Part shown: piece by piece, positions 15,739 through 48,322 of the stretch
How positions within the stretch are numbered: the stretch's first letter is position 1
How the letters are laid out: every line of letters starts with the position of its first letter
Virus record (IMG/VR): IMGVR_UViG_3300008050_000019
Origin: a virus
Length of the DNA: 64,000 bases
Reading direction: 5' to 3' (one strand)
The notes under the pieces: model-generated
The model's database searches: none
Told to the model about the DNA's origin: nothing
What the model saw: the letters and a program-made list of their open reading frames with translations, nothing else
Program-made: the position numbers and the translations under genes

Positions 15739-15769
15739 AATTATATTACGAATTATTCATTTTAACACA
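15739..15769 (-). promoter_or_regulatory. conserved promoter-like motif (site D)
   Basis: Transcribed strand TGTGTTAAAATGAATAATTCGTAATATAAT, 12 nt before the ATG of 15232..15729. Confidence 0.45.
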
Positions 15770-16088
15770 ATCTATTAATCAATTTGTGTTTAAGCGGAAT
15801 CTTGTTATACCCTGCAATAACGCAAAATTTACCATCTACAAAAACAACAAAGTCATAACGTGACCATTTTTCGTTGTATGATCTTCCTGAGCCTATATAC
15901 ACCATGATACCTACATTAGGTCTGCAATCAGAAAAGAGCTTGTAAGTAGTGGGGATGTACACTTCATCTTCCCACCCAACTAGATCTCTTCTATAGAGAC
16001 GGTGGACAGAGTTACATTCATGTGCGTCAGATTTATTTTGCCACACATTCTCTTGCAGAATGAACAAATCACCAGGTTTTAAAGCCAT
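15762..16088 (-). CDS. small 'GDLV/GDLF-motif' family protein
   Basis: N-terminal 'KPGDLFIL' motif shared with 16135, 47597, 47791, 48083 and others. Confidence 0.4.
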   Translation of the reverse strand: MALKPGDLFILQENVWQNKSDAHECNSVHRLYRRDLVGWEDEVYIPTTYKLFSDCRPNVGIMVYIGSGRSYNEKWSRYDFVVFVDGKFCVIAGYNKIPLKHKLINRLC

Positions 16089-16134
16089 AACTCACCTACT
16101 ATCTCGTAGTTAAAGTCTTCGTCGGCAACACCGC

Positions 16135-16392
16135 TTAATATACAAAATCTGCCGTTAAAAAAACTGTTTCTTCTAAGATAAAGAAATTGGCAGGCGAGCC
16201 CAAATAAAGCATGCAACTTGGGTTCACCAATCTTACGTCCCATGGAAGCTTTGCATATTTTCTGAAGAGTGTATCATGTGAATCATGTGAATTGGGTGAC
16301 ATGTACAGGGACTCCCGTGGTATGAATAAATCGCCGAACTTCAAAGACACAGTCGCACCTTCAGCCCCCTCTTTCGAATTTGCATACAACAA
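16135..16392 (-). CDS. small 'GDLV/GDLF-motif' family protein
   Basis: 'KFGDLFIPRES' motif; overlaps 16341..16661 in another frame, so boundaries uncertain. Confidence 0.35.
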   Translation of the reverse strand: MLYANSKEGAEGATVSLKFGDLFIPRESLYMSPNSHDSHDTLFRKYAKLPWDVRLVNPSCMLYLGSPANFFILEETVFLTADFVY

Positions 16393-16661
16393 ATCCTACA
16401 AGGCTCTATTGGCGCGCACACTCCATCAAGCGTCCACCTTAAAATCTCGATGATATCGCCCTTTTTCGCTAATGGCAAAACACACGTCTCTGCATGCCTT
16501 GTCTCAGTCCGATACCCTTTGAACAAGGGATGCGTTTGTGACGTATTAACACCAATGCTTATGGGCGTCCGCTTTCTCCATAGAATTGCTGCGATATGAT
16601 ATATTTGACCATTCGCTAATGCTAACTGTTTAGCATTTTTATAGATTGATGGATATCTCAT
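16341..16661 (-). CDS. cytidine / dCMP deaminase-like zinc-binding protein
   Basis: 'HAE' ... 'PCRIC' (H-A/C-E ... P-C-x-x-C) zinc-coordinating signature of the CDA fold. Confidence 0.5.
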   Translation of the reverse strand: MRYPSIYKNAKQLALANGQIYHIAAILWRKRTPISIGVNTSQTHPLFKGYRTETRHAETCVLPLAKKGDIIEILRWTLDGVCAPIEPCRICCMQIRKRGLKVRLCL

Positions 16662-17584
16662 TACTTAAAGTCTTTTATGACGCCAGATTTAAGGCCTTGT
16701 GTGAATTTAGAAAAATAATCCTTAGGGTAATCTGCTACTGCATCAATAACATTTTCGTATGCAAATTCTCTCCACCACCCAGACGTTATGCTTGTACAGA
16801 CTTTTGATAGAGCAAGCATCCAAGCTTGTCTCTCAGACAAAACGCCCGGGTGCGGTACCAAGCTTCTTTCGATCGCTAATACTGCTGATTCTTCGATCAC
16901 GGATGCAAGCTTCAGGTCATTCGTTAAAGCATCAAACTTACTCTTATCAACAGCAACCTCTTGCCCATCTTTCTGGAAAAAAGTATATGCAGGGCGATTA
17001 TATAGCTTGACTGCGTCATGAATAGAATCATGGTCGTATTTATAATCAATCTGATCACGATTGAAGAATGCTTTTTTACTTTTATCTAGCGAGGGGAGAG
17101 GGTAGTTATACGTCTCTTTTTCTCGCAATTTTATAAAATCTACGTGTTCTGATTTAACAGTGGCTCCCATCGCCTTCATAAAATGATAGTGATGGACTGT
17201 TTTCCAAAAATGAGGATTATCTTTAAGATAACGATGAGATGACTTTAACGCAAACAGAAGGTCAATGCTTGGAACAAGCCCAAAGTCAGTTTGAAAAGAT
17301 GCTGTATCATTCTTAACAAGAGAATGAAGCATGCGCGAACTCTCTCTCTTAGAGACTAGCTCAAACTCAAGATTAACAGTGCCTTGAACTATCAGATTTC
17401 TCCCTAGGTGCAAATACACTTTTCTTGGTTTGATTGCACTTCTATTTTCTTCAATAAAATATCTTGCATCACTTTCTGTGCCGACAAAGTCAAAATCAGC
17501 ATCGTCTCGAATTTTAAATCTTTGTGATCTTAAAGCAAGGGCACGACTACCAACTAAAATTAGATTAGCAAACTTGTGAGGCAT
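16661..17584 (-). CDS. hypothetical protein
   Basis: 307-aa ORF, no motif recognised. Confidence 0.45.
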   Translation of the reverse strand: MPHKFANLILVGSRALALRSQRFKIRDDADFDFVGTESDARYFIEENRSAIKPRKVYLHLGRNLIVQGTVNLEFELVSKRESSRMLHSLVKNDTASFQTDFGLVPSIDLLFALKSSHRYLKDNPHFWKTVHHYHFMKAMGATVKSEHVDFIKLREKETYNYPLPSLDKSKKAFFNRDQIDYKYDHDSIHDAVKLYNRPAYTFFQKDGQEVAVDKSKFDALTNDLKLASVIEESAVLAIERSLVPHPGVLSERQAWMLALSKVCTSITSGWWREFAYENVIDAVADYPKDYFSKFTQGLKSGVIKDFK

Positions 17585-17849
17585 TCCAACCGCTACTTTC
17601 TTCTAAATCATAAACTTCAATGCCTGTTAGATTTGCAACAAATTTAAGGCTAATCCCTTCGAATATATCGAAGATTGGCGGAGAATGTACGAAACTACGC
17701 TGTGATACTCCTGACTCAAATGGAATCCCGTGTTCATTTGATATTGCAACTGCCTCCGCAAGAAGTAATTCTGCAGCGGCCACTCTATCGTTTATTTGCG
17801 TGCCCACGTCATCTAGCGTTTTTTTGAACAATGCTTGAAGGTTATCCAT
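17565..17849 (-). CDS. hypothetical protein
   Basis: Start codon lies inside the 39-bp palindrome at 17840-17878. Confidence 0.4.
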   Translation of the reverse strand: MDNLQALFKKTLDDVGTQINDRVAAAELLLAEAVAISNEHGIPFESGVSQRSFVHSPPIFDIFEGISLKFVANLTGIEVYDLEESSGWNASQVC

Positions 17850-17878
17850 ATGATTTATTATAAATCATATGGATAACC
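17840..17878. promoter_or_regulatory. perfect 39-bp palindrome (19-1-19) covering a start codon
   Basis: ggttatccatatgatttat-t-ataaatcatatggataacc; contains the ATG of 17565..17849 and sits just after the stop of 17893..18900. Confidence 0.6.
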
Positions 17879-17892
17879 ATTACAACTTATTA

Positions 17893-18900
17893 TTACCAAG
17901 TTTCCCTGATGCGTTTTATTAAAGCTTTTTTGCCCCCAGGGATAGAATTCGCAGTGCTAATCTTCAGATGTTTTCTAGCATATTCGCGCAATTGCTTGAG
18001 TGTAAAATCTTCGAGTGGGTAAATGGTAAACTTAGTCCAGTCTGGTTGAGTTGGCTTAACTACGGGGTGGCCGGCTGGCTGGCTGTGGATATCACTCGGA
18101 CGGCCAAGCTCAAAAGGATCACCACAATCACCATAATCATCACAATCATCGCAATCATCAATGCTCACATCATCATCTCTATATGACCATGTAACAGATG
18201 GCAGTGCTTGTGTATACTCATGCAAAACAGTATACTTACAAACTCTTACTTTCTGGTATGAACAATCATAGGGAACACAAACGACGTCAGCTGGATCCAC
18301 TTCACAGATCAGAATCCTACTTCCGTTACCAAAACCTTCAGCGTATTCAAGCGCGCCGACATGATATCCATAGCTGCATGCTGAGTTTGGGTCATCTGAA
18401 ATCTTGTTTCTGGGCATTTCATTCGTGCAGCCAGGCTTATTAGAGATCGTTTTTGTATGATGGTCAAGATAATCTTGTGTAACAGATTTGTACGCCAAAA
18501 ATGTCCCTTTATCCGTCAGGGGAATATTTTCATGCTCTAAAAATTTATATAGTTGCTCAATAGAGCGGGCGCTTGTATTATTATTCAACCGTATCCAGAA
18601 GTTCATGAATACATCTGGTGATGCGTCGTTCCTTACCATCGAAAGAATTCGTTGAGCCAGCTCAATTGGAATAGCTTCTTTTTTGTAAAGAATAGTATCA
18701 TCATCAGTTACTTCAAAATCACCTGATGCCCAGTTTTTAATTGCACTCTTTGGAGAGGCCAAAGAAAGTGCTTCATCCCAATCTTCTCGAAAGAGTGCAT
18801 CTCGCAATGAAGAAAAGTTATCATCTTCTCTATGTAAGGTCTCTAGTTCACCAGATGGTAATATTAATGTTATGACGTCGTTAGTTATGCTATATTTCAT
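17893..18900 (-). CDS. hypothetical protein with acidic Asp/Cys repeat, downstream partner of the Hsp90 homologue
   Basis: 335 aa; 'SIDDCDDCDDYGDCGD' encoded by a short tandem repeat at 18118-18158. Confidence 0.45.
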   Translation of the reverse strand: MKYSITNDVITLILPSGELETLHREDDNFSSLRDALFREDWDEALSLASPKSAIKNWASGDFEVTDDDTILYKKEAIPIELAQRILSMVRNDASPDVFMNFWIRLNNNTSARSIEQLYKFLEHENIPLTDKGTFLAYKSVTQDYLDHHTKTISNKPGCTNEMPRNKISDDPNSACSYGYHVGALEYAEGFGNGSRILICEVDPADVVCVPYDCSYQKVRVCKYTVLHEYTQALPSVTWSYRDDDVSIDDCDDCDDYGDCGDPFELGRPSDIHSQPAGHPVVKPTQPDWTKFTIYPLEDFTLKQLREYARKHLKISTANSIPGGKKALIKRIRETW

Positions 18901-18910
18901 GTATGCCTTG

Positions 18911-20902
18911 TTATGCTGCTTTTGCAGCGTCCTTTAATAGAATGTAATCCACCCAGTCTGTGATAGTACCCTCATTTACTTCACCAAAACACTTCATCAA
19001 AAGAGGGTAATCCGCAGAAAGCAAAGCTAGATAATCTTCATGTTCTGTTGGGTACACAATACCTTTACATTGTGATAAAAGATATTGAAAATTTGTCCAT
19101 TTCCATGAGATGCCTTTTGTCGCTGCATTTAGATACCTTGATAATATGTGTTCAGCAGGAAGTATAGATTTTGTACTTTTTAACAAAAGTGATGTTGCGT
19201 TTGTGTATCTCCAAGTGCTACTAATACGGTGGTTTTTCCAAGCGATATTTCTAAGTTCATCGATCACTAAAGGGTGCTTTTGTATTTCTTCATAGAAGGT
19301 AGCTCGCCATGCCGAATATGATATACCCTTTACGGTTCCAGGCTTTACCGGCGATTTTTCTGTAGATTTGTACCCGTAAATTTTTGGAAAATCAATGCCA
19401 AGTTTAGCTGCAACTTTCTTGTCTTTATCAATAATATCAAGATAATTTTTCATTTCATGGGGCACAAATCTACACAAAAGAAAGTATACGTCAGTATCTG
19501 CTTGTAGCGACACCCTGGGTATCCAGTTTTCTGATTGCAACGAGTAAACAGCTTGGGGCATAAGACGAAATGCCCTATGCCCATGTTTTGAGTTTGGTAC
19601 TTTCTTTGGTACATCTTTACCAGTCCAAGGTAAAGATGAAATTCTACTAATTGGTATACCTTCGCATCCTTGCTCTGCAACCAGAGATTCCAATTCAGCA
19701 AAAACATCATCTGCCGTGCATCCTGTTGCAGGTCGTAACGTAACAGCACCTGATGGTATCATGTACCCTTTAAGTGCTTTTCTTGTATCAATAATAATGA
19801 TCTGCGTTTGTTTTTTAGGAGGAAGTAGTGCTCTTTTTCCGTTAAAAGTTTTTGCTCTTTTGCATATAAAACTCTTCGGCTTAAAATTAAAGGGCAGTTT
19901 AATTCCAGCATTGCAAAACTTATAATAGAATATTTTCTTCTCCCAAGATGAACATTGAGAATTTTTAACTTTATGTAGTTTTGCTAGTAAATCTGTATAA
20001 AGGGTTGAAATTGTTTTCTTTAGTGCCGCCCTTGTTCTTGGAGTGTATTTTAACTCTTCTCTGTTTGCCGTGAAGTCCACTTCACCTATGTCAAAGAAAA
20101 ACCTGAATCTTGAGTACCAGCCGAAATCATAGTCATTGGTATTCATCACACTAGTAATTTCTTCTGATGAAACTTTGTATGAAATACCTCCCATAACTGC
20201 TTCATTATTGTTGGCCCGGCGTAAAAGTTCTGCTTTTGTACCCTTGAAAGTCACATCATCTAATCTATCAGATATAACGTCAGGGAGATTAAATTTAACG
20301 TTTGCGCTCATGTACTTAAATACATGTCCTGCTTTCAAAAGGAAGGCTCTGTGATCAGCTTGCTTTACAGGAATTGCAATCTCGACGCCTGTTATACCTA
20401 TATCACACTCATCTTCGTATAGCAAGCATAAAATGCCTTCATCTAATTCATCTAATGCAGCATTATATACACGCTTCATACCTTTGTGCCATGAAGTTAT
20501 GTTAAATGATGATGTATAAGAGAATGCAGCTTTTGACCCAATTCCAAGTGTACCAACTTGTTCATTAGTATCACGTTTAGTAGAAGAGCCATAACTAACG
20601 TAAACTCGTATACCTTCCTCTGATAGGCCGGGGCCGTTATCCCGTATCTTTAGAGTCGGTGTTAGTGCGGTTGGTAAGTTAACTTTAATGGGTATGTCTT
20701 CATTACCCGCTTCAGCATTTGCATCCCTAGCGTTAGCCCCATATTCACGTAACACCGCCAATATATTATCTGTATATAACTGATCTCTCATGATACGCAT
20801 CAAGTGTGCGTTATCACCGGCCTTATTAGAAATCTCGAAGCGTATTTCATCGCCGATACCAGTTGTCGTTAATGTTCTGTTTTCTAAATTAACTTTTGCC
20901 AT
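18911..20902 (-). CDS. htpG: Hsp90 / HtpG-family molecular chaperone
   Basis: GHKL N-domain motifs aligning to HtpG in order: 'HLMRIMRDQLYTDNILAVLREYGANARDA' (N box; HtpG [27 protein letters not shown]), 'IRDNGPGLSEEGI' (G1), 'YGSSTKRD', 'VGTLGIGSKAAFS' (G2; HtpG IGQFGVGFYSAF). Middle-domain 'FTANREELKYTPRTRAALKKTI' matches the HtpG catalytic-loop segment '[25 protein letters not shown]'. Length 663 aa is similar to HtpG. Confidence 0.7.
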   Translation of the reverse strand: MAKVNLENRTLTTTGIGDEIRFEISNKAGDNAHLMRIMRDQLYTDNILAVLREYGANARDANAEAGNEDIPIKVNLPTALTPTLKIRDNGPGLSEEGIRVYVSYGSSTKRDTNEQVGTLGIGSKAAFSYTSSFNITSWHKGMKRVYNAALDELDEGILCLLYEDECDIGITGVEIAIPVKQADHRAFLLKAGHVFKYMSANVKFNLPDVISDRLDDVTFKGTKAELLRRANNNEAVMGGISYKVSSEEITSVMNTNDYDFGWYSRFRFFFDIGEVDFTANREELKYTPRTRAALKKTISTLYTDLLAKLHKVKNSQCSSWEKKIFYYKFCNAGIKLPFNFKPKSFICKRAKTFNGKRALLPPKKQTQIIIIDTRKALKGYMIPSGAVTLRPATGCTADDVFAELESLVAEQGCEGIPISRISSLPWTGKDVPKKVPNSKHGHRAFRLMPQAVYSLQSENWIPRVSLQADTDVYFLLCRFVPHEMKNYLDIIDKDKKVAAKLGIDFPKIYGYKSTEKSPVKPGTVKGISYSAWRATFYEEIQKHPLVIDELRNIAWKNHRISSTWRYTNATSLLLKSTKSILPAEHILSRYLNAATKGISWKWTNFQYLLSQCKGIVYPTEHEDYLALLSADYPLLMKCFGEVNEGTITDWVDYILLKDAAKAA

Positions 20903-20908
20903 ATTTCA

Positions 20909-20981
20909 TATGATCAGAGGGACTCGAACCCTCAACATACCAGCCTGTAGTGCTGGGCTCTACCATTGAGCTATGATCACC
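20909..20981 (-). tRNA. tRNA-Val (anticodon TAC), tentative isotype
   Basis: 73-nt cloverleaf: acceptor GTGATCA/TGATCAT (G1:U72), D-arm GCTC-AATGGTA-GAGC, anticodon stem CCAGC/GCTGG with loop ACTACAG (C at position 33 is unusual), T-arm GAGGG-TTCGAGT-CCCTC. Confidence 0.55.
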
Positions 20982-20982
20982 C

Positions 20983-21345
20983 TTACCCTTTTCCGAACCC
21001 TTTCCATTCACCTGGTCTTGTCATAAAAAAGCTAGCTAATGCGGTACCTTCGTCTGGAGCTTTTTTTTCTGGTTGCTTAGGTGTCTCCCGAAACTTGTCA
21101 AAAGCAATATCGATTGCATCCTCTGTTAGATGTGATCCAGTTGGGGGTACTTGCCGTATAAAGTAAGTAACCACATCTACCACCTTTAAATCAGAAATAT
21201 TTCTGTTAGCTACAGCTTTAGTAGCTGCTACCCAGGAATCTGCATCAATGATCTCAGAGCAAAGAACCTCATGCCCACTCAAGTTTTCATAAACAAACCC
21301 CTTATGTCGTGTGTGCACTTCAGCACTGTATATTCCAAACTTCAT
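20983..21345 (-). CDS. hypothetical protein
   Basis: ORF track. Confidence 0.4.
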   Translation of the reverse strand: MKFGIYSAEVHTRHKGFVYENLSGHEVLCSEIIDADSWVAATKAVANRNISDLKVVDVVTYFIRQVPPTGSHLTEDAIDIAFDKFRETPKQPEKKAPDEGTALASFFMTRPGEWKGFGKG

Positions 21346-21507
21346 GTATTATTGTACCTTATATTAATTCTAAGAACACGCTATTTTTTTCTTTTTTTGA
21401 TGAACTCGCTCAAACTTGCATACGCCAAGACACAAAAAAGAGATGGAATTATTATCAAATAAAATATGGCGTAAAACGCATAATCTTGTGCCTTGGCTAT
21501 TATGCGT

Positions 21508-22038
21508 TTAATCATTTGACTTCGAGGCTGCGGCGGGAGTAATGGCTAACAACACAGGTTCGATGCGAAGTCTTTGAGGGTACGTTGTGTATATATATTC
21601 ACCCGTCCATTGGACATAGTTGCCGCTAGCTGTCCAGAAATAAATATACGGTGATGAACTGCCGTATGTCCCTTCATCACCTGGCGCGGGTACCACCAGG
21701 TGGCCATCGGAAGCGTAGTCAGGTGTGACAACACGCATAGTAGAAGTCAGCCTTTTGCTCCCTGAGCTAACCTTTCCCTTGACAACATGGTAAGCGATTG
21801 GTGCTCCAGATTGGCTGAATAGCGTGATATATCCCTGTAGGCCTGGATCTGACGTTAACTCTAAGCGCTTCTTCAAATTATCAACTTCAGCGTTTCCAGT
21901 AAATTTAACAGAGCGTGCCGCCTTTCTTGCCCTCTTTGCCTGGATTTGTTTCTGTGTCGGTGGCGTCCTGTCAGGGACGCATGCCGTGGATGCGCCACCA
22001 AACAACATAATAATTAATAGATTCATAAATCGATTCAT
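21508..22038 (-). CDS. lipoprotein
   Basis: Signal peptide with lipobox MNRFMNLLIIMLFGGASTAC. Confidence 0.5.
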   Translation of the reverse strand: MNRFMNLLIIMLFGGASTACVPDRTPPTQKQIQAKRARKAARSVKFTGNAEVDNLKKRLELTSDPGLQGYITLFSQSGAPIAYHVVKGKVSSGSKRLTSTMRVVTPDYASDGHLVVPAPGDEGTYGSSSPYIYFWTASGNYVQWTGEYIYTTYPQRLRIEPVLLAITPAAASKSND

Positions 22039-22448
22039 AGAACTTCACACTCTTTCATTTCTAGCTTCTCAGGTGTAGATCGACCTTTAAAAATGTTAAC
22101 GTTTGCTTTACGTGAATTTGCATTATACTTTGTAACTAGCATTCTGCACATTTGCTGCATGCCCACAAACTCGACCCTCAGTCTCCGGAGTTCTCCGGCG
22201 TCAGTTTCGGTCTCAATCAATGCACTATGTGCCCTAATATCAGACACTTTGGCTACGAATGACGCATGAACATCAAAAAACCACTCATAGTTTGTAATGA
22301 CATTATCAGTCTCGAATGTCTCGGTAACAACACGCGCTGGTGCTGTTGCCACTGCTCTGGATGCCGATGTATAATCGGTAATTATACCTAACATTCCGAT
22401 AATCACGAAAAAGGCAAATACGTATACTAAAATTCTTGAAATATCCAT
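22035..22448 (-). CDS. membrane-anchored hypothetical protein
   Basis: N-terminal TM helix ILVYVFAFFVIIGMLGIITDY; 4-nt overlap with downstream gene. Confidence 0.45.
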   Translation of the reverse strand: MDISRILVYVFAFFVIIGMLGIITDYTSASRAVATAPARVVTETFETDNVITNYEWFFDVHASFVAKVSDIRAHSALIETETDAGELRRLRVEFVGMQQMCRMLVTKYNANSRKANVNIFKGRSTPEKLEMKECEVL

Positions 22449-22494
22449 TTTACTCCTTAATTTAACCTCATTTAAATCTCAAATAGCAACTAAT

Positions 22495-23673
22495 TTATAA
22501 CCAGTCGCTCTTATCTTGCAAGCCTCTAACTGAGATCGCTACTGGAAACCGAGGAACATATTCTCTATTTGTCAACCCTTGGTAGCGAACAGTAACCATC
22601 TTTCCAATAACGGCATCTGGGTTTTTCCAAATCCATGCAAGCCTATCGAAACTGCCTTCTAATTTTGCTCTGAATGTTGCTCCGCCGCCGTTTGGGCCAA
22701 AATTAGAGCCGGTGGGGGTTTTTAACACAAAAGCACCTAGATGCCCCTTTAAAGCGCCGACGCCCTCTTTAACACCAACGACTTCAAACTCAGCGTCATC
22801 AAATTCTTTACGTTTTAGTAAATTATCTGTGCGTTTACCGCAATAAGGCATATGCGTATTACGAATCATGGTGCCTTCATATCCAGCAGATAGATAACCT
22901 GAATGTAACAATGTTACCTCGGCTTCATCTGGAACAGAGAATTTTGTTTCCACTACTACTACATGATTCGGTACCAGCTGCCCAAGAGCAGCTTTTGCCA
23001 TAAGAAACCTTTTGATAAAAGAGATATCCTGATTTAATGTACCAATTATCGGGCAATCATAAACATGATACTGTACTTGCTTTTGTTTTTCGTAATCAGC
23101 AGGAGTTGCATGCGCGTCTGTTTTTTTAACTGCCTTGATAATTGATTCAAAATCATCTTTTAAGTCATGAGAATAAAGCTCTCCATCAAGCATCGCTTCT
23201 GGATATTTTCGAAAAAAGGGTACAAGTGCCTTTCTGATGTGGGCACAAGCTTCGATAGGTTTTCTGCCCCGTGTGAAAAAGCCATCTTTAGTTGCCAAGC
23301 ATCTAATACCATCAAGTTTTGGCTGTGTAACGCACGGAAACTTAATTTTTCTCTTTTGATCTTCCCACTTCTTTGCGAGTATTGCAGTATACCCAGGTAG
23401 TGCTGCATCAGCGTTGGTGCCGATATCAGTGATGTCTTCAACATACTTCTTTCTGCTCTGTCTCAGAAGATTAGAATTCAGCTCTAGTGTTAGTTGTTCA
23501 TGTTGAGAACGGCCGGCCTTCGGTTTAATGTCTCGTGACGCCGATGTAGTCATCTTACCATTAAGTTTACCAGACACTGTCCAATATTTACACTCATCAG
23601 GTGAATGATGGATCTCCCAGACTTGAGTAGAACCCGTACTGTTAAGTTTAAATAATCGTTTATAAAGCATCAC
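22495..23673 (-). CDS. ATP-dependent DNA ligase (T7/T4 type)
   Basis: Motif I 'KLDGIRC', motif III 'MLDGELY', motif IV 'EGTMIRN', motif V 'LLKRKEF', followed by an OB-like C-terminal domain. Confidence 0.8.
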   Translation of the reverse strand: MMLYKRLFKLNSTGSTQVWEIHHSPDECKYWTVSGKLNGKMTTSASRDIKPKAGRSQHEQLTLELNSNLLRQSRKKYVEDITDIGTNADAALPGYTAILAKKWEDQKRKIKFPCVTQPKLDGIRCLATKDGFFTRGRKPIEACAHIRKALVPFFRKYPEAMLDGELYSHDLKDDFESIIKAVKKTDAHATPADYEKQKQVQYHVYDCPIIGTLNQDISFIKRFLMAKAALGQLVPNHVVVVETKFSVPDEAEVTLLHSGYLSAGYEGTMIRNTHMPYCGKRTDNLLKRKEFDDAEFEVVGVKEGVGALKGHLGAFVLKTPTGSNFGPNGGGATFRAKLEGSFDRLAWIWKNPDAVIGKMVTVRYQGLTNREYVPRFPVAISVRGLQDKSDWL

Positions 23674-23736
23674 TCACCACCCTTTAAAAGAAAAAAAGAA
23701 TCAATAACAATACCCAATGCCGCTTTATGTTCAAAG

Positions 23737-24093
23737 TTACTCAACCTTTTTTCGTTCGCATATATACTTGTAAACAGGGATTTTAATTTGGGGTACACCA
23801 TCCTCAACCTTCCCCGTCACAGAATTGATACAATCGATAGCTCTTTGTTCAGTCGGAATTTCAGAACCATCTATTTTTGATTTAATCGCCAGCCCAGTGC
23901 CGAAACCAAGAAATCCAGTGTCGGCCAAGCTAGTAAGTTGGTGCAACTTCAATTTATTTGTTGATGTTATCTCATATAATAAAGTCAAATCACTCGGTGA
24001 AGATTTTGACGTTATCTTAAGTGATGGACTTACGTCCGTATAGAGCATGTTTCCCATTCCTACCTTCTGTTTTTCCAGGCTGGACAAAACCAC
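23737..24093 (-). CDS. hypothetical protein
   Basis: ORF track. Confidence 0.4.
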   Translation of the reverse strand: MVLSSLEKQKVGMGNMLYTDVSPSLKITSKSSPSDLTLLYEITSTNKLKLHQLTSLADTGFLGFGTGLAIKSKIDGSEIPTEQRAIDCINSVTGKVEDGVPQIKIPVYKYICERKKVE

Positions 24094-24231
24094 CTGTCAT
24101 CGAACAAGCTATATGCCGTGATATCTTTAGAGCAATCATTGAATTCGTAACGAACAAATGACGTATATGCTGAGCCTGCTGCATAACCAGCTGGCACAAG
24201 CACGATGCTAAGCAACATGAATATTATTGTG

Positions 24232-24705
24232 TTATGACGCATTCGGCACCTGCAAAAGAAATGCTTCTACGTCATCAAGGAGTTCAAGATTTATGGCATA
24301 ATACTCGTCACACTCAGGTTCGATACTGTCAACCATAGCATCATAATCGCCACAATCATCGCATGTCCAGTTAACAAACTGTCCATAAAATCTATTATTT
24401 TGATGTTTTTGATACTTTGACAAAACAGAGCAAAGGATAGAGAGGGCTCTTTTTGATGCTGCAGTATTAACTATAGCTAAACCAGATTTAAGTACATCTG
24501 CCCTTAGATGGTATCTATTGTCTATCCACTGTGCCCACCCGCCATTAGTAACTTGGTAATTCATATGCCCAATAGACACTACATACTGATCAGGTATGGG
24601 TAATGCACCAATAAAATCAGTGTATGGCTTGCCTTTTAAATCACCGCTTGACCAACGAGTATGTGCAGTGTCCATTGCTTCCTGCATCTTCCTATAGTTT
24701 TTCAT
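24232..24705 (-). CDS. hypothetical protein
   Basis: ORF track; acidic Cys/Asp segment 'CDDCGDYD'. Confidence 0.4.
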   Translation of the reverse strand: MKNYRKMQEAMDTAHTRWSSGDLKGKPYTDFIGALPIPDQYVVSIGHMNYQVTNGGWAQWIDNRYHLRADVLKSGLAIVNTAASKRALSILCSVLSKYQKHQNNRFYGQFVNWTCDDCGDYDAMVDSIEPECDEYYAINLELLDDVEAFLLQVPNAS

Positions 24706-24719
24706 GGCTGCCTTCTTAT

Positions 24720-39138: not shown

Positions 39139-39167
39139 AAAATTACGATGAACTAGTAATTCAATCA
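39139..39167 (-). promoter_or_regulatory. conserved promoter-like motif (site B, partial)
   Basis: Transcribed strand TTGATTGAATTACTAGTTCATCGTAATTTTTAACC, in a 283-nt ORF-free gap. Confidence 0.3.
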
Positions 39168-39442
39168 AGTTGTGATACTAACTCAATGTCTATAACTTCA
39201 ATGCTACGAGTTTCACCCATAGGCATCTTTTTAATGAGACCTCTTTTACCATCCCCGTTTTCTTCGTCGACACCTAAAAATAGAAAGTACGTGCCCTTCT
39301 CGATGGGTACTGCTCCTTTAAACCAATCGTATGGGTGTTTTTCCTTTCCTTCATCATTTCCAAAAATAAACCCGTCTGATCGTGAAACTAAATCTTTAAC
39401 TGTCATAACCATATCGCCAAGTCTAAAACTACTTTTTACCAT
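39161..39442 (-). CDS. small 'GDxV-motif' family protein
   Basis: 'FRLGDMVMTVKD' N-terminal motif. Confidence 0.35.
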   Translation of the reverse strand: MVKSSFRLGDMVMTVKDLVSRSDGFIFGNDEGKEKHPYDWFKGAVPIEKGTYFLFLGVDEENGDGKRGLIKKMPMGETRSIEVIDIELVSQLD

Positions 39443-39680
39443 CGCCTTTTTTTGCCTTTTTTAAGAAAAGAATATCTTCTCGTGATATTTTTTCTATTCT
39501 ATTATCTACATAGACGTTGCAGAAGGGTCCATGAGCCCATACATCATAACGTCTATGAAATGTCATGTTTGTTTTACCAGAATTAAAACCCTCTTGTAAC
39601 GAGAGAATTATTCCTATTTTATTTAATGATGATATCACAATAAGATCACCAATTTCATATAAAGTTTTATCTACACACAT
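39429..39680 (-). CDS. small 'GDLV-motif' family protein
   Basis: 'YEIGDLIVISS' motif. Confidence 0.35.
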   Translation of the reverse strand: MCVDKTLYEIGDLIVISSLNKIGIILSLQEGFNSGKTNMTFHRRYDVWAHGPFCNVYVDNRIEKISREDILFLKKAKKGDGKK

Positions 39681-41532
39681 TTGAAAAAATTCCCCTTAGA
39701 ATGTTTGTGTATCGGGACGCATTTAGAGGATATAGTTCTATCAATCTTGCCACATCATTAAAGACTATAGAATCCCATTGCAGAAAGAACTGTGTTTGTG
39801 TTATTATATACATTTCGTATGCATCCCCTGGTGTGCATATACCTACACCACAGTTGCTCGTATTTAGCGCTACATCACTTTCATTGAACCCAGCAACTGT
39901 CTGGGCTGCTTCGTCTGTAATAAGAATGATGTAAGGGTATGCCCCTGTTGATGTTACAGTAGATTCTCTCCAATTGATAAGTGCTGGATTTGTGCTGTTC
40001 GCTAAATCATGAACTACATCGTATGAAGGCTCTACACCTGGATATGATGCGGTAAGATTGTTCAATGCTGCAGAAAATACAGTAAAATCAACGAGATTTA
40101 CTAGTACATTATAATTATCTCTTCTACCAGGAAATACAACTAAACCAAACCTATGTTCTGTCCCTTGAAAGTCTGCAACATAATTACTTATCCCTGCTTG
40201 CAGAGCGAACATAGCTTGTGTCATTGAACCTGAGCCATCTATCACAAAAATTATATCTACCTTATCATGTGGTGTAAGATCCTCATCGATGAGCCCATCA
40301 CAGTCATTGTCAACCCCATCACAAGATTCTTGCTCAGGATAAACTGGTCCAATGCAGCTTGACCAAATGCCTGAAGTGCATGTTCTCTCGCCTAAAACGC
40401 ATTGTCCGATACCAGCCGTAGCAGGATCTCCGCATGCGTCTGTTAACTCATCGATTGTGCCGTCGCAATCATCATCCCAGTTATTACACACTTCGGGCTC
40501 GGTAGCAAAAGAATAACATGTACCCCATACACCATTAGAATCGCATATTGAAATGCCGGTACCGCAATTGATAAGCTCTCCCGTAGCGTGATCTAAGACA
40601 TTTTGTCGGCATACTCTAGCGTCACCGACTGTACATGCACAATCTTCATCGATTATCCCATCACAGTCATTATCAAAACCATCACATATTTCTCGTACTG
40701 GTTTTCTAGCATTACACCCTATCCAGTTGCCCACGTTGCAACTTTCTATACCACTTTCACATGAGGTTCTGCATAACCTCTCAAGCCCTTCATCAATTGC
40801 ACCATTACAGTCATTATCAAAACCATCGCAAATTTCAGGCGAAGGGTGTACAGCACCAACGCAATATGTTTCTTCTGATGTACATATTTGAGTGCCAAGT
40901 TGACACAAACCAACTTCACTTGACGGGCCGCATGAATCTAAAATTTCTTCGTCAGTAATACCATCACAATTATTATCAAAACCATCGCAAGTTTCTGGTG
41001 TCGGCAAAATAACGCCTGTACATTGTCCCCACACACCATGAGTACACCTTTGTTTTCCAGTTCTGCAAACGCTAGGGCTAATATAACTGTCGACAGCTGG
41101 ACCAGTCCAGCAATCCCGTGAATAATTGTCAATTACACCATTACAGTCATTATCAAAACCATCGCAGATTTCTATCCCGCCTGGGTTTATTTCGGCTATA
41201 TTGTCGTTACAATCGTTATCACAAGAGTTGTAGCCATCACCATCACCATCATGTCCTTCGTCAACTAAACCATCGCAGTCATTGTCCAAACCATCACAGA
41301 TTTCATTAACTTGTCCGATGAACCCTTCACAAAATGCCATTTCATTTTTAGCATCGCATGAAGTAATCCCCTTTTGGCAAGTGCCAATAGAATCTTTAAG
41401 ATTATCTGTTATTATTTTTCCGTTATTTATTATACACGGGCGTGGGGACTGACATACTCTCGATAAGTTATCATCTTCACATGCAGCAATAAAAAGCAGG
41501 GAGATAGATAAAAGTATATATTTCAACTTCAT
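39667..41532 (-). CDS. lipoprotein with seven Cys-rich CDGxDNDCDGxxDE (MopE-like putative metal-binding) repeats and C-terminal vWA-like domain
   Basis: Lipobox signal 'LLFIAAC'; repeats 'EICDGFDNDCDG(I/L)IDE' x7; C-terminal MIDAS-like 'DIIFVIDGSGSM'. Confidence 0.6.
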   Translation of the reverse strand: MKLKYILLSISLLFIAACEDDNLSRVCQSPRPCIINNGKIITDNLKDSIGTCQKGITSCDAKNEMAFCEGFIGQVNEICDGLDNDCDGLVDEGHDGDGDGYNSCDNDCNDNIAEINPGGIEICDGFDNDCNGVIDNYSRDCWTGPAVDSYISPSVCRTGKQRCTHGVWGQCTGVILPTPETCDGFDNNCDGITDEEILDSCGPSSEVGLCQLGTQICTSEETYCVGAVHPSPEICDGFDNDCNGAIDEGLERLCRTSCESGIESCNVGNWIGCNARKPVREICDGFDNDCDGIIDEDCACTVGDARVCRQNVLDHATGELINCGTGISICDSNGVWGTCYSFATEPEVCNNWDDDCDGTIDELTDACGDPATAGIGQCVLGERTCTSGIWSSCIGPVYPEQESCDGVDNDCDGLIDEDLTPHDKVDIIFVIDGSGSMTQAMFALQAGISNYVADFQGTEHRFGLVVFPGRRDNYNVLVNLVDFTVFSAALNNLTASYPGVEPSYDVVHDLANSTNPALINWRESTVTSTGAYPYIILITDEAAQTVAGFNESDVALNTSNCGVGICTPGDAYEMYIITQTQFFLQWDSIVFNDVARLIELYPLNASRYTNILRGIFSNVCR

Positions 41533-41948
41533 ATATACTAACGTATATACGAAAAGTACCTATACGTTAATTAACTGTGTGTATCTTCTGTTGATTGCTC
41601 TGTTTTTTTCCTAAGCATTGAAACTACGGTAGCTAGGACAACTGTAAGAGCTAGGAAAAAACTGCCTGTACCAAATTGCCCAATGCCAAATGATATAGCA
41701 GAAAGGATACAATATATAATCATCGCTGGATAAATAATCATAATTCGATCCTAATAATTTTAGATTCTTCTGGTGTTCTATCTTCTATAGGTTCATCATC
41801 ACAGGGTAATGGAATTTGTATATATAACCGTTGTGGTTGCTCTTTCTGCTCTTCGCGAAGTTTGCTTAATGCATCAATTAACCATGCTGGTGTATAATTA
41901 CTCATATTGTGTCCTAATAATATTATTACTATATGTTAACATAGTACA

Positions 41949-42233
41949 CTAGCGACGAGCACTAATTTTACCCTTTATTTCGCCTAATTTTCCAATTATT
42001 ATGATGTTTTGTTCAACAATTCTTTCTAATTTTTCGTCTTGCTTAGCAACGTCTTTTTCCAAATTAGCGATTCGTGCTTCAAGGACTCGCCCGTCTTCTC
42101 TAGAAAGATAATTCTTGGCGCCCATATCATTAACATAAGCAATGGCACCACCAGTTGCTATTACTATCGCAACTATCCAGCTCCCGAAATTCTTAAAGAG
42201 CGTTAGTGTATTATAGGACGTCATCTTGGGCAT
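41949..42233 (-). CDS. membrane-anchored coiled-coil protein
   Basis: N-terminal TM helix 'FGSWIVAIVIATGGAIAYV'. Confidence 0.4.
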   Translation of the reverse strand: MPKMTSYNTLTLFKNFGSWIVAIVIATGGAIAYVNDMGAKNYLSREDGRVLEARIANLEKDVAKQDEKLERIVEQNIIIIGKLGEIKGKISARR

Positions 42234-42492
42234 CTAGTATTTCCTCTATTTCCTCTATTTCCTTTAAAATCTCTTTTGTTTGGCTGCGAGCATGCTGTGT
42301 GGCATTAGCTGTTTGTGGCACATCAATTTGGAGTGTTCTTCTTGCCATCACGTAACTATTTTTATGTTCCTGAGTATATTGGTATGTTTGTGCAATATTA
42401 ATCTGGTTCAACGCTTCCGACTCCGGGTGTCCTTTGTCACATGAGACTATAGGTAAGACAAGCAAGACGATTGTTAGTATTTTATAACGCAC
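42211..42492 (-). CDS. small lipoprotein
   Basis: 'MRYKILTIVLLVLPIVSC' lipobox. Confidence 0.45.
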   Translation of the reverse strand: MRYKILTIVLLVLPIVSCDKGHPESEALNQINIAQTYQYTQEHKNSYVMARRTLQIDVPQTANATQHARSQTKEILKEIEEIEEILDAQDDVL

Positions 42493-42533
42493 TAATATAT
42501 CCTGATAATAAGTAGTAAGCCTTATTGATTTGG

Positions 42534-43199
42534 TTAATTTATATGCACAAAAGAGCCGAATCGGTCTTTTATTAATAGCTCCAATTCGCCCTTTTCAATA
42601 AGAGGATGAATCACAGACAAGTAGCTATCGCCCTTTTTTGTTACTTCATCACTAAATGTTGCAGCATTATTAAGTGTTAACCAATTAAGAGCTAATTTAA
42701 GATCATTGGCATAAGCAGCAGTCATATTGACCGCTTTGCTAACTGATTCTCGTAAACCATGACGTCGCCGTTGTTTCTGTGCTGCAGAACTAGTAGTAAT
42801 AACAGACTCAGCCCAAGCTAATCCAGGTCGTAGGTGTGGAATCGCAATATTCTTAGCCGAAGAAATAGAAATCCACTTTGAAGAAGCGTGCTCGTATTTC
42901 TTTGTATGTGGATTCTTTGATATTTTTGCAGGCTGTATAGTAACACCAATGAACAATATAGTCTTTGTGCCATTATGACTTATCATACCCCACGGAAATT
43001 TTACATTAGAAATGCCAGCTTCTTCTTGTGTTTCTCGGGCTGCTGCACCAAATGCATCTTCTCCAGGGTCAATTTTCCCCTTGGGTAAGTCCCACCTTCC
43101 ATCGTGCGTTTTTAAGCATAGCACATGAGGCTTGTTTTTCAAAAACTTAATAAGTACAATGCCTGCGCTCTTTGTTTTAAACGCTTCTAAAAGGTTCAT
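42534..43199 (-). CDS. Nudix hydrolase
   Basis: Nudix box 'GKIDPGEDAFGAAARETQEEAGI' (Gx5Ex7REUxEExGU). Confidence 0.8.
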   Translation of the reverse strand: MNLLEAFKTKSAGIVLIKFLKNKPHVLCLKTHDGRWDLPKGKIDPGEDAFGAAARETQEEAGISNVKFPWGMISHNGTKTILFIGVTIQPAKISKNPHTKKYEHASSKWISISSAKNIAIPHLRPGLAWAESVITTSSAAQKQRRRHGLRESVSKAVNMTAAYANDLKLALNWLTLNNAATFSDEVTKKGDSYLSVIHPLIEKGELELLIKDRFGSFVHIN

Positions 43200-43212
43200 A
43201 CTTATTAAGTAT

Positions 43213-45031
<1,819 letters not shown>

Positions 45032-45073
45032 GTTACAAACTATAATACATAAATATGCGTGTTTGTATCATGT

Positions 45074-45898
45074 CTAAATTGAATTATGTTGTAAGTTACC
45101 GAACGTTTTTGTGTACTTAGCCCAAGTTGAGTCTTTGGTCATTGAGTTAAATTCGAATCCTACGAATTTTGCTTTGACAACATCCCAAGAAGCATGGCCT
45201 TTAGTTGTTTCAATTTCCGCCCATTCTTCATCAGGTAAAATATGAAACCTGATTAAGGTCTTACAAAGCTCATAGAGTTCACGGGCTTCTTTTCTAGACA
45301 ACTTCTGATCAAAGAGGATAGGATTATTTAACATTGCTTGCGCTGTCTTAGAACCTATCCCAAAAACACCTGGGATATTATCCGACCCGTCGCCCACAAG
45401 CGCTTTCCACTTAACATAATCATATGTAGGAGCCGAAACAAACTCTTTTTTCATGGGATTCCATAAAGTAACGTTATTATACAGTTGCAACAGCTGGATG
45501 AAGTCTGTGTCATTCGACACGACGGTTACGTCATCATTCGGATGTAGTCTGCTAATGATGTTTGATACTATATCATCTCCCTCGTAATTGGGATGCCTTA
45601 AAACTGTAATAGGGAAATCACGTAATATGCTAAAGATTTCATCTTTCTGGCGAGAAAAAGAGTCATATTCTTCACTTTCCATAGGAACACGTGTTCCTTT
45701 ATATTCTTCAAAGATTTCTAAACGCTTTACAGGAACACCTTCACTTGTTAGGTAACAAACGTCAGGTTTATGTTTCTCAATGATGGGTCTTAAGCCCCGA
45801 AAGAAGTTAAAACAAATAGGCCAATTGCCTTTTGAGTATCCGCTGCGGGCGCGGTGAATGAGGTTATAGCCGTCTAAAATTAAAACTCGTTTTCCCAT
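45074..45898 (-). CDS. 5'-3' exonuclease / flap endonuclease (T4 RNase H-like)
   Basis: 'KRVLILDGYNLIHRA' N-terminal motif and 'YEGDDIV' acidic cluster typical of the PIN-like 5' nuclease domain of Pol I / T4 rnh. Confidence 0.75.
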   Translation of the reverse strand: MGKRVLILDGYNLIHRARSGYSKGNWPICFNFFRGLRPIIEKHKPDVCYLTSEGVPVKRLEIFEEYKGTRVPMESEEYDSFSRQKDEIFSILRDFPITVLRHPNYEGDDIVSNIISRLHPNDDVTVVSNDTDFIQLLQLYNNVTLWNPMKKEFVSAPTYDYVKWKALVGDGSDNIPGVFGIGSKTAQAMLNNPILFDQKLSRKEARELYELCKTLIRFHILPDEEWAEIETTKGHASWDVVKAKFVGFEFNSMTKDSTWAKYTKTFGNLQHNSI

Positions 45899-45950
45899 AA
45901 ATTATTATAATTCGAAAGAAAACATTTTTACACTCTTATGTATTGAAGTT

Positions 45951-46289
45951 TTAATCAGCTAGCTTTAGGCCAATGGCAGCACCACGTTTACAAAACGTCC
46001 ATTTAGCGGTGACTTCGCCCCGCTTTAAATAGGATTCAGTCACAAGAGTATAGAAGTCAACCAAAAACATGTGATAATAGTTTCCTCTTAGATCTTCTAA
46101 AGTAAAACCTACTGAGGATCTGCCCTTCGAGTAGGAAATAATCTTCATTGTCGCATCGAACTCGAAGTTCTCTTTCCATGTTACAGGTTCATCACGTCTC
46201 GACTTATGATTATATGCACTTGATGCATTTTTCGCTGCCCCATGTACAACTTGCCCGTCATCTAAAATTGCAACTTTCCATTTTGCCAT
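45951..46289 (-). CDS. hypothetical protein
   Basis: ORF track. Confidence 0.4.
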   Translation of the reverse strand: MAKWKVAILDDGQVVHGAAKNASSAYNHKSRRDEPVTWKENFEFDATMKIISYSKGRSSVGFTLEDLRGNYYHMFLVDFYTLVTESYLKRGEVTAKWTFCKRGAAIGLKLAD

Positions 46290-46322
46290 AATGTATTATA
46301 TCACACAGGAAATTTTAATACA

Positions 46323-46739
46323 CTATCCTTTATACACAAGATCTTGCAGCGATGCGTAGTTGAATCCATCACCCGCTAATCCCTCAGTCTTTTCTTTGAC
46401 CCACTTCCCCAAACCTTGCATAATCATTCTTTTCATTTCTTCGAGATTCTCTTCGTCAGCAGCTCTATCAAACTCAGTGGTATCATGCACAATGTCATAA
46501 GCATCAATTCCCCACCGCCCAAAAATATCCTCAAGTTCAGTTTTGTCTGTTGCGACAGTGATATCATGGTTAAGTTTTTCAATGCCAGCAGCAAAATCTG
46601 TTTTCGCCGAGTCAAAAGTTGAAGATCTGACATCTTCTATTTCTGCTCTAACATCACCCTGATTGTTCGTTTTTGGTCCCCTCATTTTATAATTCCAGAC
46701 CAACTCTTCGTTGATAAATTTCTTTAAAATATCACTCAT
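46323..46739 (-). CDS. hypothetical acidic protein
   Basis: ORF track. Confidence 0.4.
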   Translation of the reverse strand: MSDILKKFINEELVWNYKMRGPKTNNQGDVRAEIEDVRSSTFDSAKTDFAAGIEKLNHDITVATDKTELEDIFGRWGIDAYDIVHDTTEFDRAADEENLEEMKRMIMQGLGKWVKEKTEGLAGDGFNYASLQDLVYKG

Positions 46740-46743
46740 AATA

Positions 46744-47577
46744 TTAACACGGGCTCCTACCTGATGCTGTAATTCTTCTAACTAATGGGTACATTTCACG
46801 AAACCTATTTAAATCTTTACCCCGAGCGTCAAGTCTTGGTGGTCTTCTTTTAAATGGGTATAGTTTTTTTGTTCTACTTAATGGCACGGCGGCTGTAGTA
46901 AAATCATTTATGAATGCATCTCCGACTAAACTGCTTGTGATTTGCTGGGACTGCAATTGCATAACTCTGACTAGCTCTTTTTTATCTTGCTCATCTAGCA
47001 GAATTCCCTCTACGTACTTTACATCTTGATCATGCGCGCATCCAGTTGACCATGTTATACCTAAATCTAGGGTTTCTCTTAAAACCTGTCTATTTGAATC
47101 GTCAATATACGCAAGATACAGCCGATTTGGCGCTGCTCCAGTTCTTGCATCGATGATAAAAGGATCTAGCCCTTTAAAAGGCAGCTCTGTCTTACTTGAT
47201 GCTGTTTTTGTTACAGTATTATAATCAATAGTCAGGATGGTATCAACGTCAGTATTTCTACCAGCGATGCTGTTCCAATAAAATCTAATAATCGGATCGC
47301 CACCGGCATCAATTTCTGACTGAGATGATATTGTTATCGCGGAAATGAACCTGAATACTTCATGAAGTAACTCAATTACTGTTGCTTTTACGTTAAAGAA
47401 ATTTGGGCCAGTGAGCGACCGCTTAACATCTGCGACGGTATAAATCTCCATCTCACGCAGGGGAGAACCTTTGTGGTTTTTTGACGCAAAAATAAATGAG
47501 TCATTCCCGGCTCGAGTGATAACGCATTCATCGACTCGTGCGGATGACGTAACTAATTGTGGAGAGCTAAATGCCAT
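46744..47577 (-). CDS. hypothetical protein (possibly structural)
   Basis: 277-aa ORF, no motif. Confidence 0.4.
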   Translation of the reverse strand: MAFSSPQLVTSSARVDECVITRAGNDSFIFASKNHKGSPLREMEIYTVADVKRSLTGPNFFNVKATVIELLHEVFRFISAITISSQSEIDAGGDPIIRFYWNSIAGRNTDVDTILTIDYNTVTKTASSKTELPFKGLDPFIIDARTGAAPNRLYLAYIDDSNRQVLRETLDLGITWSTGCAHDQDVKYVEGILLDEQDKKELVRVMQLQSQQITSSLVGDAFINDFTTAAVPLSRTKKLYPFKRRPPRLDARGKDLNRFREMYPLVRRITASGRSPC

Positions 47578-47596
47578 TACTATTAAGTATACTACA

Positions 47597-47791
47597 TTAT
47601 AGTTTTAAACTAGCAATTACAGTAACACAGACCTGATGAACTGGAATGTTGTAAATATAGCCATCAATCATAACTGCATGGTGTGGAACAAATCCATAAA
47701 GTGTTTTTTCTACGTAAATACCGCATTCGGAATCTACGTGTTTAGAAAGTTTAAGTTCAACTAAATCACCAAATGAAAAATTTAACTGCAT
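47597..47791 (-). CDS. small 'GDLV-motif' family protein
   Basis: 'FSFGDLVELKL' ... 'YIYNIPVH'; clear paralogue of 47791..48015. Confidence 0.45.
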   Translation of the reverse strand: MQLNFSFGDLVELKLSKHVDSECGIYVEKTLYGFVPHHAVMIDGYIYNIPVHQVCVTVIASLKL

Positions 47792-48015
47792 TATTCACTC
47801 AGCCTAGTCAACAAAACTAAATCTACATCATGTACAGGAATGTTATACAGATTACCTTCAATCATAAGCTTATATTGATCTGCATCAACCCATGAACCTG
47901 TGGAGTATGATTCTTGTACAAAGACGCAGCCACGAAAACGCTCTATATATATACCAAATAACGCCCCGATTCCAACAGGTAATATTCCAACTAAATCGCC
48001 AAAGAAGAAATCCAT
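47791..48015 (-). CDS. small 'GDLV-motif' family protein
   Basis: 'FFFGDLVGILP' ... 'LYNIPVH'. Confidence 0.45.
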   Translation of the reverse strand: MDFFFGDLVGILPVGIGALFGIYIERFRGCVFVQESYSTGSWVDADQYKLMIEGNLYNIPVHDVDLVLLTRLSE

Positions 48016-48082
48016 TTATTTAATTATAAAATATTAAATGAATAAAATACACTCGTTTATAACGCCACTTTAGTCACTCATA

Positions 48083-48322
48083 TCATGATTTATTAATACT
48101 GCTTATAACTTTAACACAATTTCTTGGAGATAAAACCAATATAGGGCCACCAGCAAAGAACCGATACGCTCCGTCATTCCTGCACCCTAAAAAAATGGCG
48201 ATTGTCTGATCACCAAAATGGTTTATTTCAACAAGATCACCAAACTTTAGTAAAGGCGGATATACAACGTCACCTGAAGGGAAGCAGATCGTGCAAGGGC
48301 TACTTATACACCCATGAGCCAT
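48083..48322 (-). CDS. small 'GDLV-motif' family protein
   Basis: 'LLKFGDLVEINHFG'. Confidence 0.4.
   Translation of the reverse strand: MAHGCISSPCTICFPSGDVVYPPLLKFGDLVEINHFGDQTIAIFLGCRNDGAYRFFAGGPILVLSPRNCVKVISSINKS

Follow-up and report, generated by a model that had tools for sequence, protein, structure and literature searches.

Small phage proteins sharing an N-terminal Gly-Asp motif are probable stand-alone SH3-like barrels in an uncultivated GroEL-encoding jumbo phage

The 64,000-nucleotide stretch of viral DNA analysed here (IMG/VR record IMGVR_UViG_3300008050_000019, hereafter the window) encodes ten small proteins with a Gly-Asp motif near the N-terminus. We propose that these proteins are probably stand-alone small SH3-like barrels of an old, fast-diverging superfamily that is typical of its phage clade and grows by tandem duplication, with the N-terminal motif being structural; with low confidence, we suggest that the proteins may serve as small binding modules. 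Judged by sequence comparison, the ten proteins do not look like a single family of recent expansion; two tandem duplications of recent date can be seen. They would be new, so far unannotated proteins of a fold class that is very well known, and many such genes are typical of a clade of uncultivated GroEL-encoding jumbo phages.

Results

The N-terminal motif is a property of the proteins

The original prediction, made from the sequence alone, listed at least eight open reading frames (ORFs) starting with xxFGDL(V/F)x. All eight exist on the minus strand, and the numbers by which they were listed are the low ends of the ORFs; we keep such numbers as names (Table 1). The literal pattern was too strict, the actual consensus being hydrophobic-x-x-G-D-[LMV]-[VFI], and in 48083 the motif is not at the very start. 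When all six frames of the window were scanned with the pattern [LIVMFYW]xxGD[LIVM][LIVMF], all 13 matches fell in the three frames of the minus strand, leaving the plus strand without any. Eleven of the 13 lie no more than 30 residues past the preceding stop codon, in ORFs with 55-106 residues remaining, and the scan adds two members that had been overlooked, 9715-10002 and 9136-9384. In the set of 103 minus-strand genes, products of up to 130 residues have the motif 10 times within their first 35 residues; 5000 shuffles of the residues within each protein yielded 0.20 on average and never more than 3. Elsewhere in the proteome it was observed twice (1.5 expected).

It is exceedingly unlikely that the motif is an artefact of nucleotide features, such as a Shine-Dalgarno-like GGTGAT in frame or a DNA repeat, or of chance ORFs. 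GGTGAT does resemble the extended anti-Shine-Dalgarno complement, GGT GAT is present at 7 of the 11 sites, and one assembly has no gene call for 48083-48322. However, the Gly-Asp codons (GGT or GGC, then GAT) are merely the commonest Gly and Asp codons of the genome (GGT 36%, GAT 72%), GGC and GAC occur too, and no in-frame start codon lies at Shine-Dalgarno spacing downstream of them. Thus, the motif is not a ribosome-binding site read in frame. Since the flanking codons vary, there is also no DNA repeat, and on codon usage and sequence context we rejected both forms of the artefact. The coding strand is filled by these ORFs without overlap, one of them (47791-48015) folds confidently, and protein-level homologues with the same start are plentiful in related phages of different DNA. 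Overlaps of neighbouring start and stop codons at 47791/47597, 39429/39161 and 16079/15762 and independent gene calls in other assemblies argue that the genes are real. The motif pattern is real and operates at the protein level. Its genes do occur in tandem clusters, as first described: 15762/16079, 39161/39429, 47597/47791/48083 and 9136/9715.

Predicted fold of the motif proteins

We modelled two members with AlphaFold2 (AF2), each with a 20-row alignment of window members and 10 related database proteins. The model of 47791-48015 was confident (predicted local distance difference test score, pLDDT, 87.1; predicted TM-score, pTM, 0.71) and has an SH3 meander. In that of 15762-16088 only the core was confident (pLDDT 80-86); there the motif (residues 6-11) runs up to and into strand 1. 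In both models Gly-Asp is at residues 6-7, directly before strand 1 (residues 8-11), and the motif block (residues 1-10) has pLDDT values of 92 and 84 in the two models. The models bear out the earlier suggestion of a KOW/SH3-like barrel start and point to a small SH3/KOW/Tudor-like barrel that the motif opens: the motif sits in the same place in both, and eight PDB chains are common to their top-60 lists. The modelled proteins would belong to the SH3-like superfold by their predicted five-strand meander, a partly open barrel whose final strand is preceded by a 3-10 turn.

When aligned, the members have a strand 1 with the motif, a variable insert, an x-h-G-h-h-h block (h, hydrophobic), an h-h-h-x-G-x-h-x-x-h hairpin and a final h-x-h-h-x-x-L. 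As we read the models, the motif would be a structural signature, not a functional site: through the hydrophobic residue, the Gly-Asp turn and the two aliphatic residues the chain would enter and build strand 1. Between strand 1 and strand 2 (the x-h-G-h-h-h block) would lie a loop of highly variable length (4 to ~50 residues), and strand 2 would lead on to the strand 3-Gly-strand 4 hairpin, a short 3-10 turn and strand 5. The loop after strand 1 would be the likely specificity element.

Library searches gave hints in the same direction. A profile of the ten window proteins alone had the SH3 repeat of MIB1 (4tse_A, E 0.034) as its top PDB match. The mixed 20-sequence profile, searched against 1.84 billion representatives, returned 23 matches, mostly its own input and some proteins of Pfam SH3_15 repeats; a mixed 108-sequence profile was too diffuse (5 matches). 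The best Pfam hint for the members was SH3_CYT4 (E 0.027, two members), below the cut-off, and PHROGs gave no annotated match for them.

Related phages encode many proteins of the same type

The window had no DNA-level relatives among 50,697 deposited phage genomes. The closest relatives were found via GroEL in IMG/VR and metagenomes, at no more than 48% protein identity, and queries with the 1298-aa protein and rIIA found no closer phage relatives in IMG/VR. We used 117 loci around these GroEL genes (1.5 Mb, ~1.3 Mb after duplicate removal), which contain 186 distinct small ORFs with the core GD[LIVM][LIVMF] near the start. Among the families that they form are c0 (MQQGDLVHIPQG...), c1 (M-x-I-x-VGDLV-x-C...KIGIVV...VYYVYF) and c2 (MKPGDLVR...GELGVVLE...VKVL...G..GW....LEVV), and iterative search merges six clusters into a c2 superfamily. 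In the freshwater relative L054 (Ga0214923_10003317), positions 3849-9156 hold at least 14 tandem paralogous small SH3-like genes (MKPGDLVR...GELGVVLE...GW..LEVV), with 21 motif-bearing ORFs in 20 kb. Motif ORFs number 1.72 per 10 kb of the window, against 1.08 for the relatives (1.3 Mb) and 0.2 for the first 50 kb of T4. The c2 profile matches the PDB SH3 domains of Pex13 (E 0.006), intersectin and spectrin (E range 0.006-0.5), and the weak Pfam matches of the related-phage families are all to SH3-type models. Of the 108 family sequences, only 3 had a PHROG match, all three to the same family of unknown function.

A ~70-aa gene with a GDLV start begins within 800 bp downstream of GroEL in 56 of the 87 distinct related phages (c0 in 42, c1 in 14; for example L021 11536-11742 and L054 11583-11825, from the set L006-L122). 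This position, together with the restriction of the motif to the extreme N-terminus of small proteins, would fit a functional tag (for capsid targeting, export, a protease or degron site, or recognition by the phage chaperonin) on otherwise different proteins. We regard such a tag as very unlikely: both AF2 models build the motif into the barrel core as one of its strands, with high pLDDT, the motif is internal in 48083 (residue 25) and 9136 (residue 24), it also opens the internal repeats of multi-SH3 proteins, and no cleavage-site pattern follows it.

A second idea, that the N-terminal Gly-Asp barrels are clade-wide cofactors or client adaptors for the phage-encoded GroEL, seems to us just as improbable. 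Its bearing on the window is that 48083 resembles c0 and 39429 resembles c1, both no more than 3.5 kb from GroEL. If true, it would describe a new, very small co-chaperonin or substrate-delivery module, diversified into many copies. GroES is itself an SH3-like, partly open barrel that starts K-P-L-G-D-R-V-L-V, and in related phages a member of the small barrel superfamily stands directly downstream of GroEL. Neither window members nor related-phage families matched Cpn10 in Pfam, and hhalign against three GroES sequences reached at most 13%, over the motif only. No window member is adjacent to GroEL, the nearest being 2.7 and 3.5 kb away; the gene downstream of the window GroEL encodes a NUDIX hydrolase. 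We therefore rejected a GroES/Cpn10 identity on the Pfam, hhalign and gene-order results.

Relatedness among the members

The motif ORFs had been proposed to form one expanded family. This stands in part: 47597 with 47791, and 15762 with 16079-16350, are clear paralogues, but the other links are near the detection limit. The YNIPVH sequence that was said to link 47597 and 47791 belongs to a full-length alignment (BLASTP E 5e-8), with reciprocal phmmer matches. By pairwise sequence comparison, these two tandem pairs are the only demonstrable paralogues. Iterative hidden Markov model (HMM) searches started from every member and run over the window plus 37 related loci grew only for the 47597/47791 pair. 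A search of 5.8 billion proteins with that pair found no homologue besides the pair itself. The remaining members share the motif, a weakly detectable C-terminal hairpin block and the common architecture.

We then ranked ~380 window ORFs with leave-one-out profiles built from the last 45 residues, which are free of the motif, holding out paralogues together (Table 1). Four of the eight independent groups were placed in the top four, far beyond chance (estimated binomial probability ~1e-6). By pairwise or iterative search, then, whole-length homology is detectable for the two pairs only; the leave-one-out ranks appear significant for four further groups.

Profiles from the related phages point the same way. 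Window members are the best window matches of the c1, c2 and c5 HMMs: 48083 is the top window match of c2, which also finds 39161 at E 0.053 over HMM positions 2-57, and 39429 is that of c1 (E 0.014). By hhalign, 48083 matched c2 at 84% and c0 at 55%, 30265 matched c2 at 73% (52 columns) and 39429 matched c1 at 63%, with scores of 24-28 versus control maxima of 13-20. With the motif masked, 48083 still matched c0 at 74% (score 23 versus a control maximum of 12.6), and with a pooled masked profile 6 of the 10 members came among the 30 best of 390 ORFs (P = 2e-5).

Several results weigh against a common barrel superfamily. No member reaches a Pfam or PHROG threshold. The two AF2 runs used a shared, shallow and mixed alignment that contains SH3-like relatives and could bias them towards a barrel. 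The confidently modelled pair 47597/47791 and also 39161 fail the leave-one-out C-terminal test. With the motif masked, 9 of the 10 members have no significant profile match to related-phage families, and the pooled masked profile barely separates members from other ORFs, its scores all being near zero.

These results leave some room for convergence, in which the proteins would be unrelated or anciently related barrels, h-x-x-G-D-L-V would be a favoured start of strand 1, and there would be no lineage-specific expansion beyond the two recent duplications. Within the window, iterative HMM searches join only 47597 and 47791, and masked profile comparisons are mostly negative, as convergence would have it. 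On the other hand, the density of motif ORFs is ~9 times that of the T4 early region, the genes lie in tandem clusters, several clusters of related phages merge into one superfamily by iterative search, and the leave-one-out C-terminal profiles place four members in the top 4 of ~380 ORFs. Convergence would also leave unexplained why 17% of one phage's small genes independently adopted one fold and one start. We consider it unlikely, and we infer that all ten members share the fold and a common ancestor.

Comparison with known small barrels

Within the SH3-like superfold, the barrels would lie nearest to the Tudor, KOW and Mind-bomb-repeat SH3 domains. The nearest characterised relative by sequence and structure is the MIB/HERC2 SH3 repeat (Pfam SH3_15, PF18346). 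SH3_15 units begin h-x-x-G-D-x-V-x-h, as window members do, and LKFGDLV of the window aligns with LQIGDLVNI and FQVGDLVQV of MIB1. Eukaryote-type proteins with multiple SH3_15 units, each repeat starting FRVGDRVRV, matched the mixed profile at E 1.7e-13 summed over 7 repeats. The SH3_15 gathering cut-off (24 bits) was not reached, there was no match at E <=1 for any of nine members, and hhalign of single members against 17 MIB-type repeats was negative (probability <6%). The MIB repeats recur inside large ubiquitin ligases of eukaryotes, whereas the window proteins are single-domain phage proteins.

KOW, CarD and Tudor domains use the same start as the motif. Tudor, PWWP, Agenet and KOW barrels share the five-strand meander and the 3-10 turn ahead of its final strand, but their sequence identity to the window proteins is only 7-19%, and they act inside multidomain chromatin or transcription proteins. 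No window member matched the Pfam Tudor model or that of KOW, a 27-residue motif whose invariant Gly spans strands 1-2. Nor did the members match the canonical SH3 models (SH3_1, SH3_2, SH3_3); the ALYDY-type strand 1 and the WW dipeptide are absent. NIPVH of 47597 and 47791, which spans the last part of strand 4 and the 3-10 turn, resembles and takes the position of the IP-x-N-Y-V turn of canonical SH3 domains, but the other signatures are absent.

Foldseek against BFVD found many phage proteins of 52-105 residues with the same fold (E 3e-3 to 0.09, TM 0.5-0.67), some annotated as 'KOW domain-containing' or 'Hva1 TUDOR', indicating that stand-alone small barrels are common in phage genomes. 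These matches are all weak and have no detectable sequence relation to the window proteins. We know of no phage among them that carries ten or more copies.

The BFVD matches also include T4-type 'transcriptional regulator' proteins, and T4 MotB is the best-documented phage use of such a module. An early product encoded in a 'non-essential' region, MotB has a predicted KOW/SH3-like barrel in its N-terminal ~45 residues, binds DNA and co-purifies with host H-NS (PMC7827196). Unlike the multigene set of the window, MotB is encoded by one conserved gene and has an OB-fold as its second domain, and no sequence similarity of the window proteins to it was found.

Member genes and further candidates

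Table 1. Motif genes and other features of the window, with the rank of each member in the leave-one-out profile test
Feature	Coordinates	Strand	Product	Remarks	Rank
47791	47791..48015	minus	74 aa, MDFFFGDLVGI...YNIPVHDV	stand-alone SH3-like barrel predicted by AF2	203
47597	47597..47791	minus	64 aa, MQLNFSFGDLVEL...YNIPVHQV	tandem paralogue of 47791-48015	173
48083	48083..48322	minus	79 aa, motif LKFGDLVEI at residues 25-33	24-residue Cys-rich extension, then putative barrel	24
39429	39429..39680	minus	83 aa, N-terminus MCVDKTLYEIGDLIVI; ..YEIGDLIVIS..KIGIILSL..YDVWAHGPFCNV..	start overlaps stop of 621-aa MopE-like gene	2
39161	39161..39442	minus	93 aa, N-terminus MVKSSFRLGDMVMT; ..FRLGDMVMTV..GTYFLFLGV..	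motif at residue 6; overlaps 39429-39680 by 14 nt	not found
30265	30265..30579	minus	104 aa from ATG at 30579, MKVGDLVNL...	ORF open from ATG at 30612 too	4
15762	15762..16088	minus	108 aa, MALKPGDLFIL...	predicted barrel with ~45-residue insert after strand 1	1
16079 (16079fs in the ranking)	16079..16350	minus	90 aa when restored, (V)SLKFGDLFIP, GTG start	tandem paralogue of 15762-16088; frame broken in window	46
9715	9715..10002	minus	95 aa, ..LKFGDVVVLIS..	motif at residue 11; gene call in other assemblies (P0018)	19
9136	9136..9384	minus	82 aa, FSEGDVIIVL at residue 24	probable member; aligns poorly to other members	3
Candidate fused domain copy	11332..11550	minus	C-terminal ~70 residues of 242-aa protein 11329-12057, FSIKSGTPFIYLG...IAVIFVNGKIIHVPFDQRILSL		
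Homopolymer run T7	16157..16163 (minus strand 16163-16157)	minus		frameshift site	
GroEL	43213-44874		GroEL		
Six tRNA genes	3748-5474 and 20909-20980	minus	Arg-TCT, Leu-TAA, Arg-CCT, Ile-TAT, Met-CAT, Val-TAC		

The gene 16079-16350 is broken in the window. ORF 16135-16392, the one originally listed (16135-16350 when read from its GTG start), holds the N-terminal part. The C-terminal part is ORF 16079-16243, which carries, in the other frame, the hairpin sequence of the neighbour 15762-16088. The break is at a run of T7 in the window that is T8 in three independent assemblies, where the gene is intact. The restored protein aligns end to end with 15762-16088 (E 6e-9), and an intact 103-aa version is present in the protein database (P0029). 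The frameshift context GTT TTT TTA reads as a U_UUU_UUA slippery heptamer, and we considered a programmed -1 frameshift. Because three other assemblies simply have one more T, a one-base deletion or assembly error at the T run is the simpler explanation.

The weakest of the eight original members is 39161-39442. The start of its neighbour 39429-39680 overlaps the stop of a gene (39667-41532, minus strand) for a 621-aa predicted lipoprotein rich in C-D-G-x-D-N-D-C-D-G repeats (Pfam Cu-binding_MopE). The Cys-rich extension of 48083-48322 (residues 1-24; 48252-48322, minus strand; HGCISSPCTIC) has a second, partial copy of the motif, FPSGDVVY, and could, from its sequence, be a small metal-binding knuckle.

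Beyond the ten members, the C-terminus of 11329-12057 was among the top three non-members in 8 of 8 leave-one-out profile runs and also gave a weak c2 HMM match at residues 170-224. Residues ~170-242 thus resemble a candidate fused, motif-degenerate copy of the barrel. Two possible members on the minus strand lack Gly-Asp: 29116-29379 (MKFKIASLVS...), with a weak c2 HMM match on its C-terminal half, and 54159-54620, which starts ..NIGQVLFIIPSN.AGVVPVQVIER. A likely member with ..LCEGDMILR.. at residue 24 (L129 5669-5935) lies ~4 kb past the right end of the window and adjoins a dCMP deaminase gene.

Phage and genomic setting

The window has a G+C content of 40%, with nearly every gene on the minus strand, and its gene content fits a large lytic phage. 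It encodes rIIA, rIIB, DNA ligase, T4-type RNA ligase and a MoxR-like ATPase, and also a NUDIX hydrolase, a 5'-3' exonuclease and a sigma factor in addition to GroEL. Proteins identical to those of the window are present on marine metagenome contigs, the longest being 308,593 bp (ENA ERZ27249009, k141_306648), which indicates a jumbo phage. A scan for promoters and terminators was uninformative, as promoter-like sites at 46.5-48.6 kb were no commoner than in shuffles.

The segment 30704-36171 (minus strand) encodes an 858-aa protein with the shoulder and vault-repeat domains of the Major Vault Protein (MVP_shoulder, E 3.8e-19). Its gene is followed by those of a DUF2201 metallopeptidase/VWA-like protein and an AAA_5 (MoxR-like) ATPase, a set that is unusual in a phage. 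The MVP-like relatives are distant and have no equivalent small gene. MORN-like repeats (..HREDGPA..) occur in several proteins, including 917-1387 (minus strand) at the left end of the window and L131 15108-16364 just outside it; in the relative L041 (17249-17674) such repeats are joined to an N-terminal GDLI barrel.

Discussion

We propose that the superfamily of small SH3-like barrels would expand by local tandem duplication, with two pairs still recognisable in the window. By analogy with other single-domain SH3-like proteins, each copy may be a small module that binds a host or phage partner, either protein or nucleic acid, and owes its specificity to the variable loops; we hold this with low confidence and favour it because T4 MotB is the nearest documented phage use of such a module. 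The original prediction named host takeover and anti-defence as frequent roles of such expansions in phages; our results are neutral on such a role, apart from the genes being small and fast-evolving, as phage genes of that kind generally are.

The analysis provides a probable fold and a simple sequence rule for about one-sixth of the small 'hypothetical' genes in a large uncultivated marine phage. The same rule extends to similar genes, in the hundreds, of related GroEL-encoding jumbo phages; Pfam matches none of all these genes and PHROGs almost none. No new mechanism is revealed, and the finding is useful chiefly for annotating a phage clade that is poorly known, together with the lead of the GroEL-adjacent barrel. 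If the proposal is right, this phage clade invests heavily in one tiny scaffold, diversified by tandem duplication. Such diversification is usually linked to interaction with changing partners.

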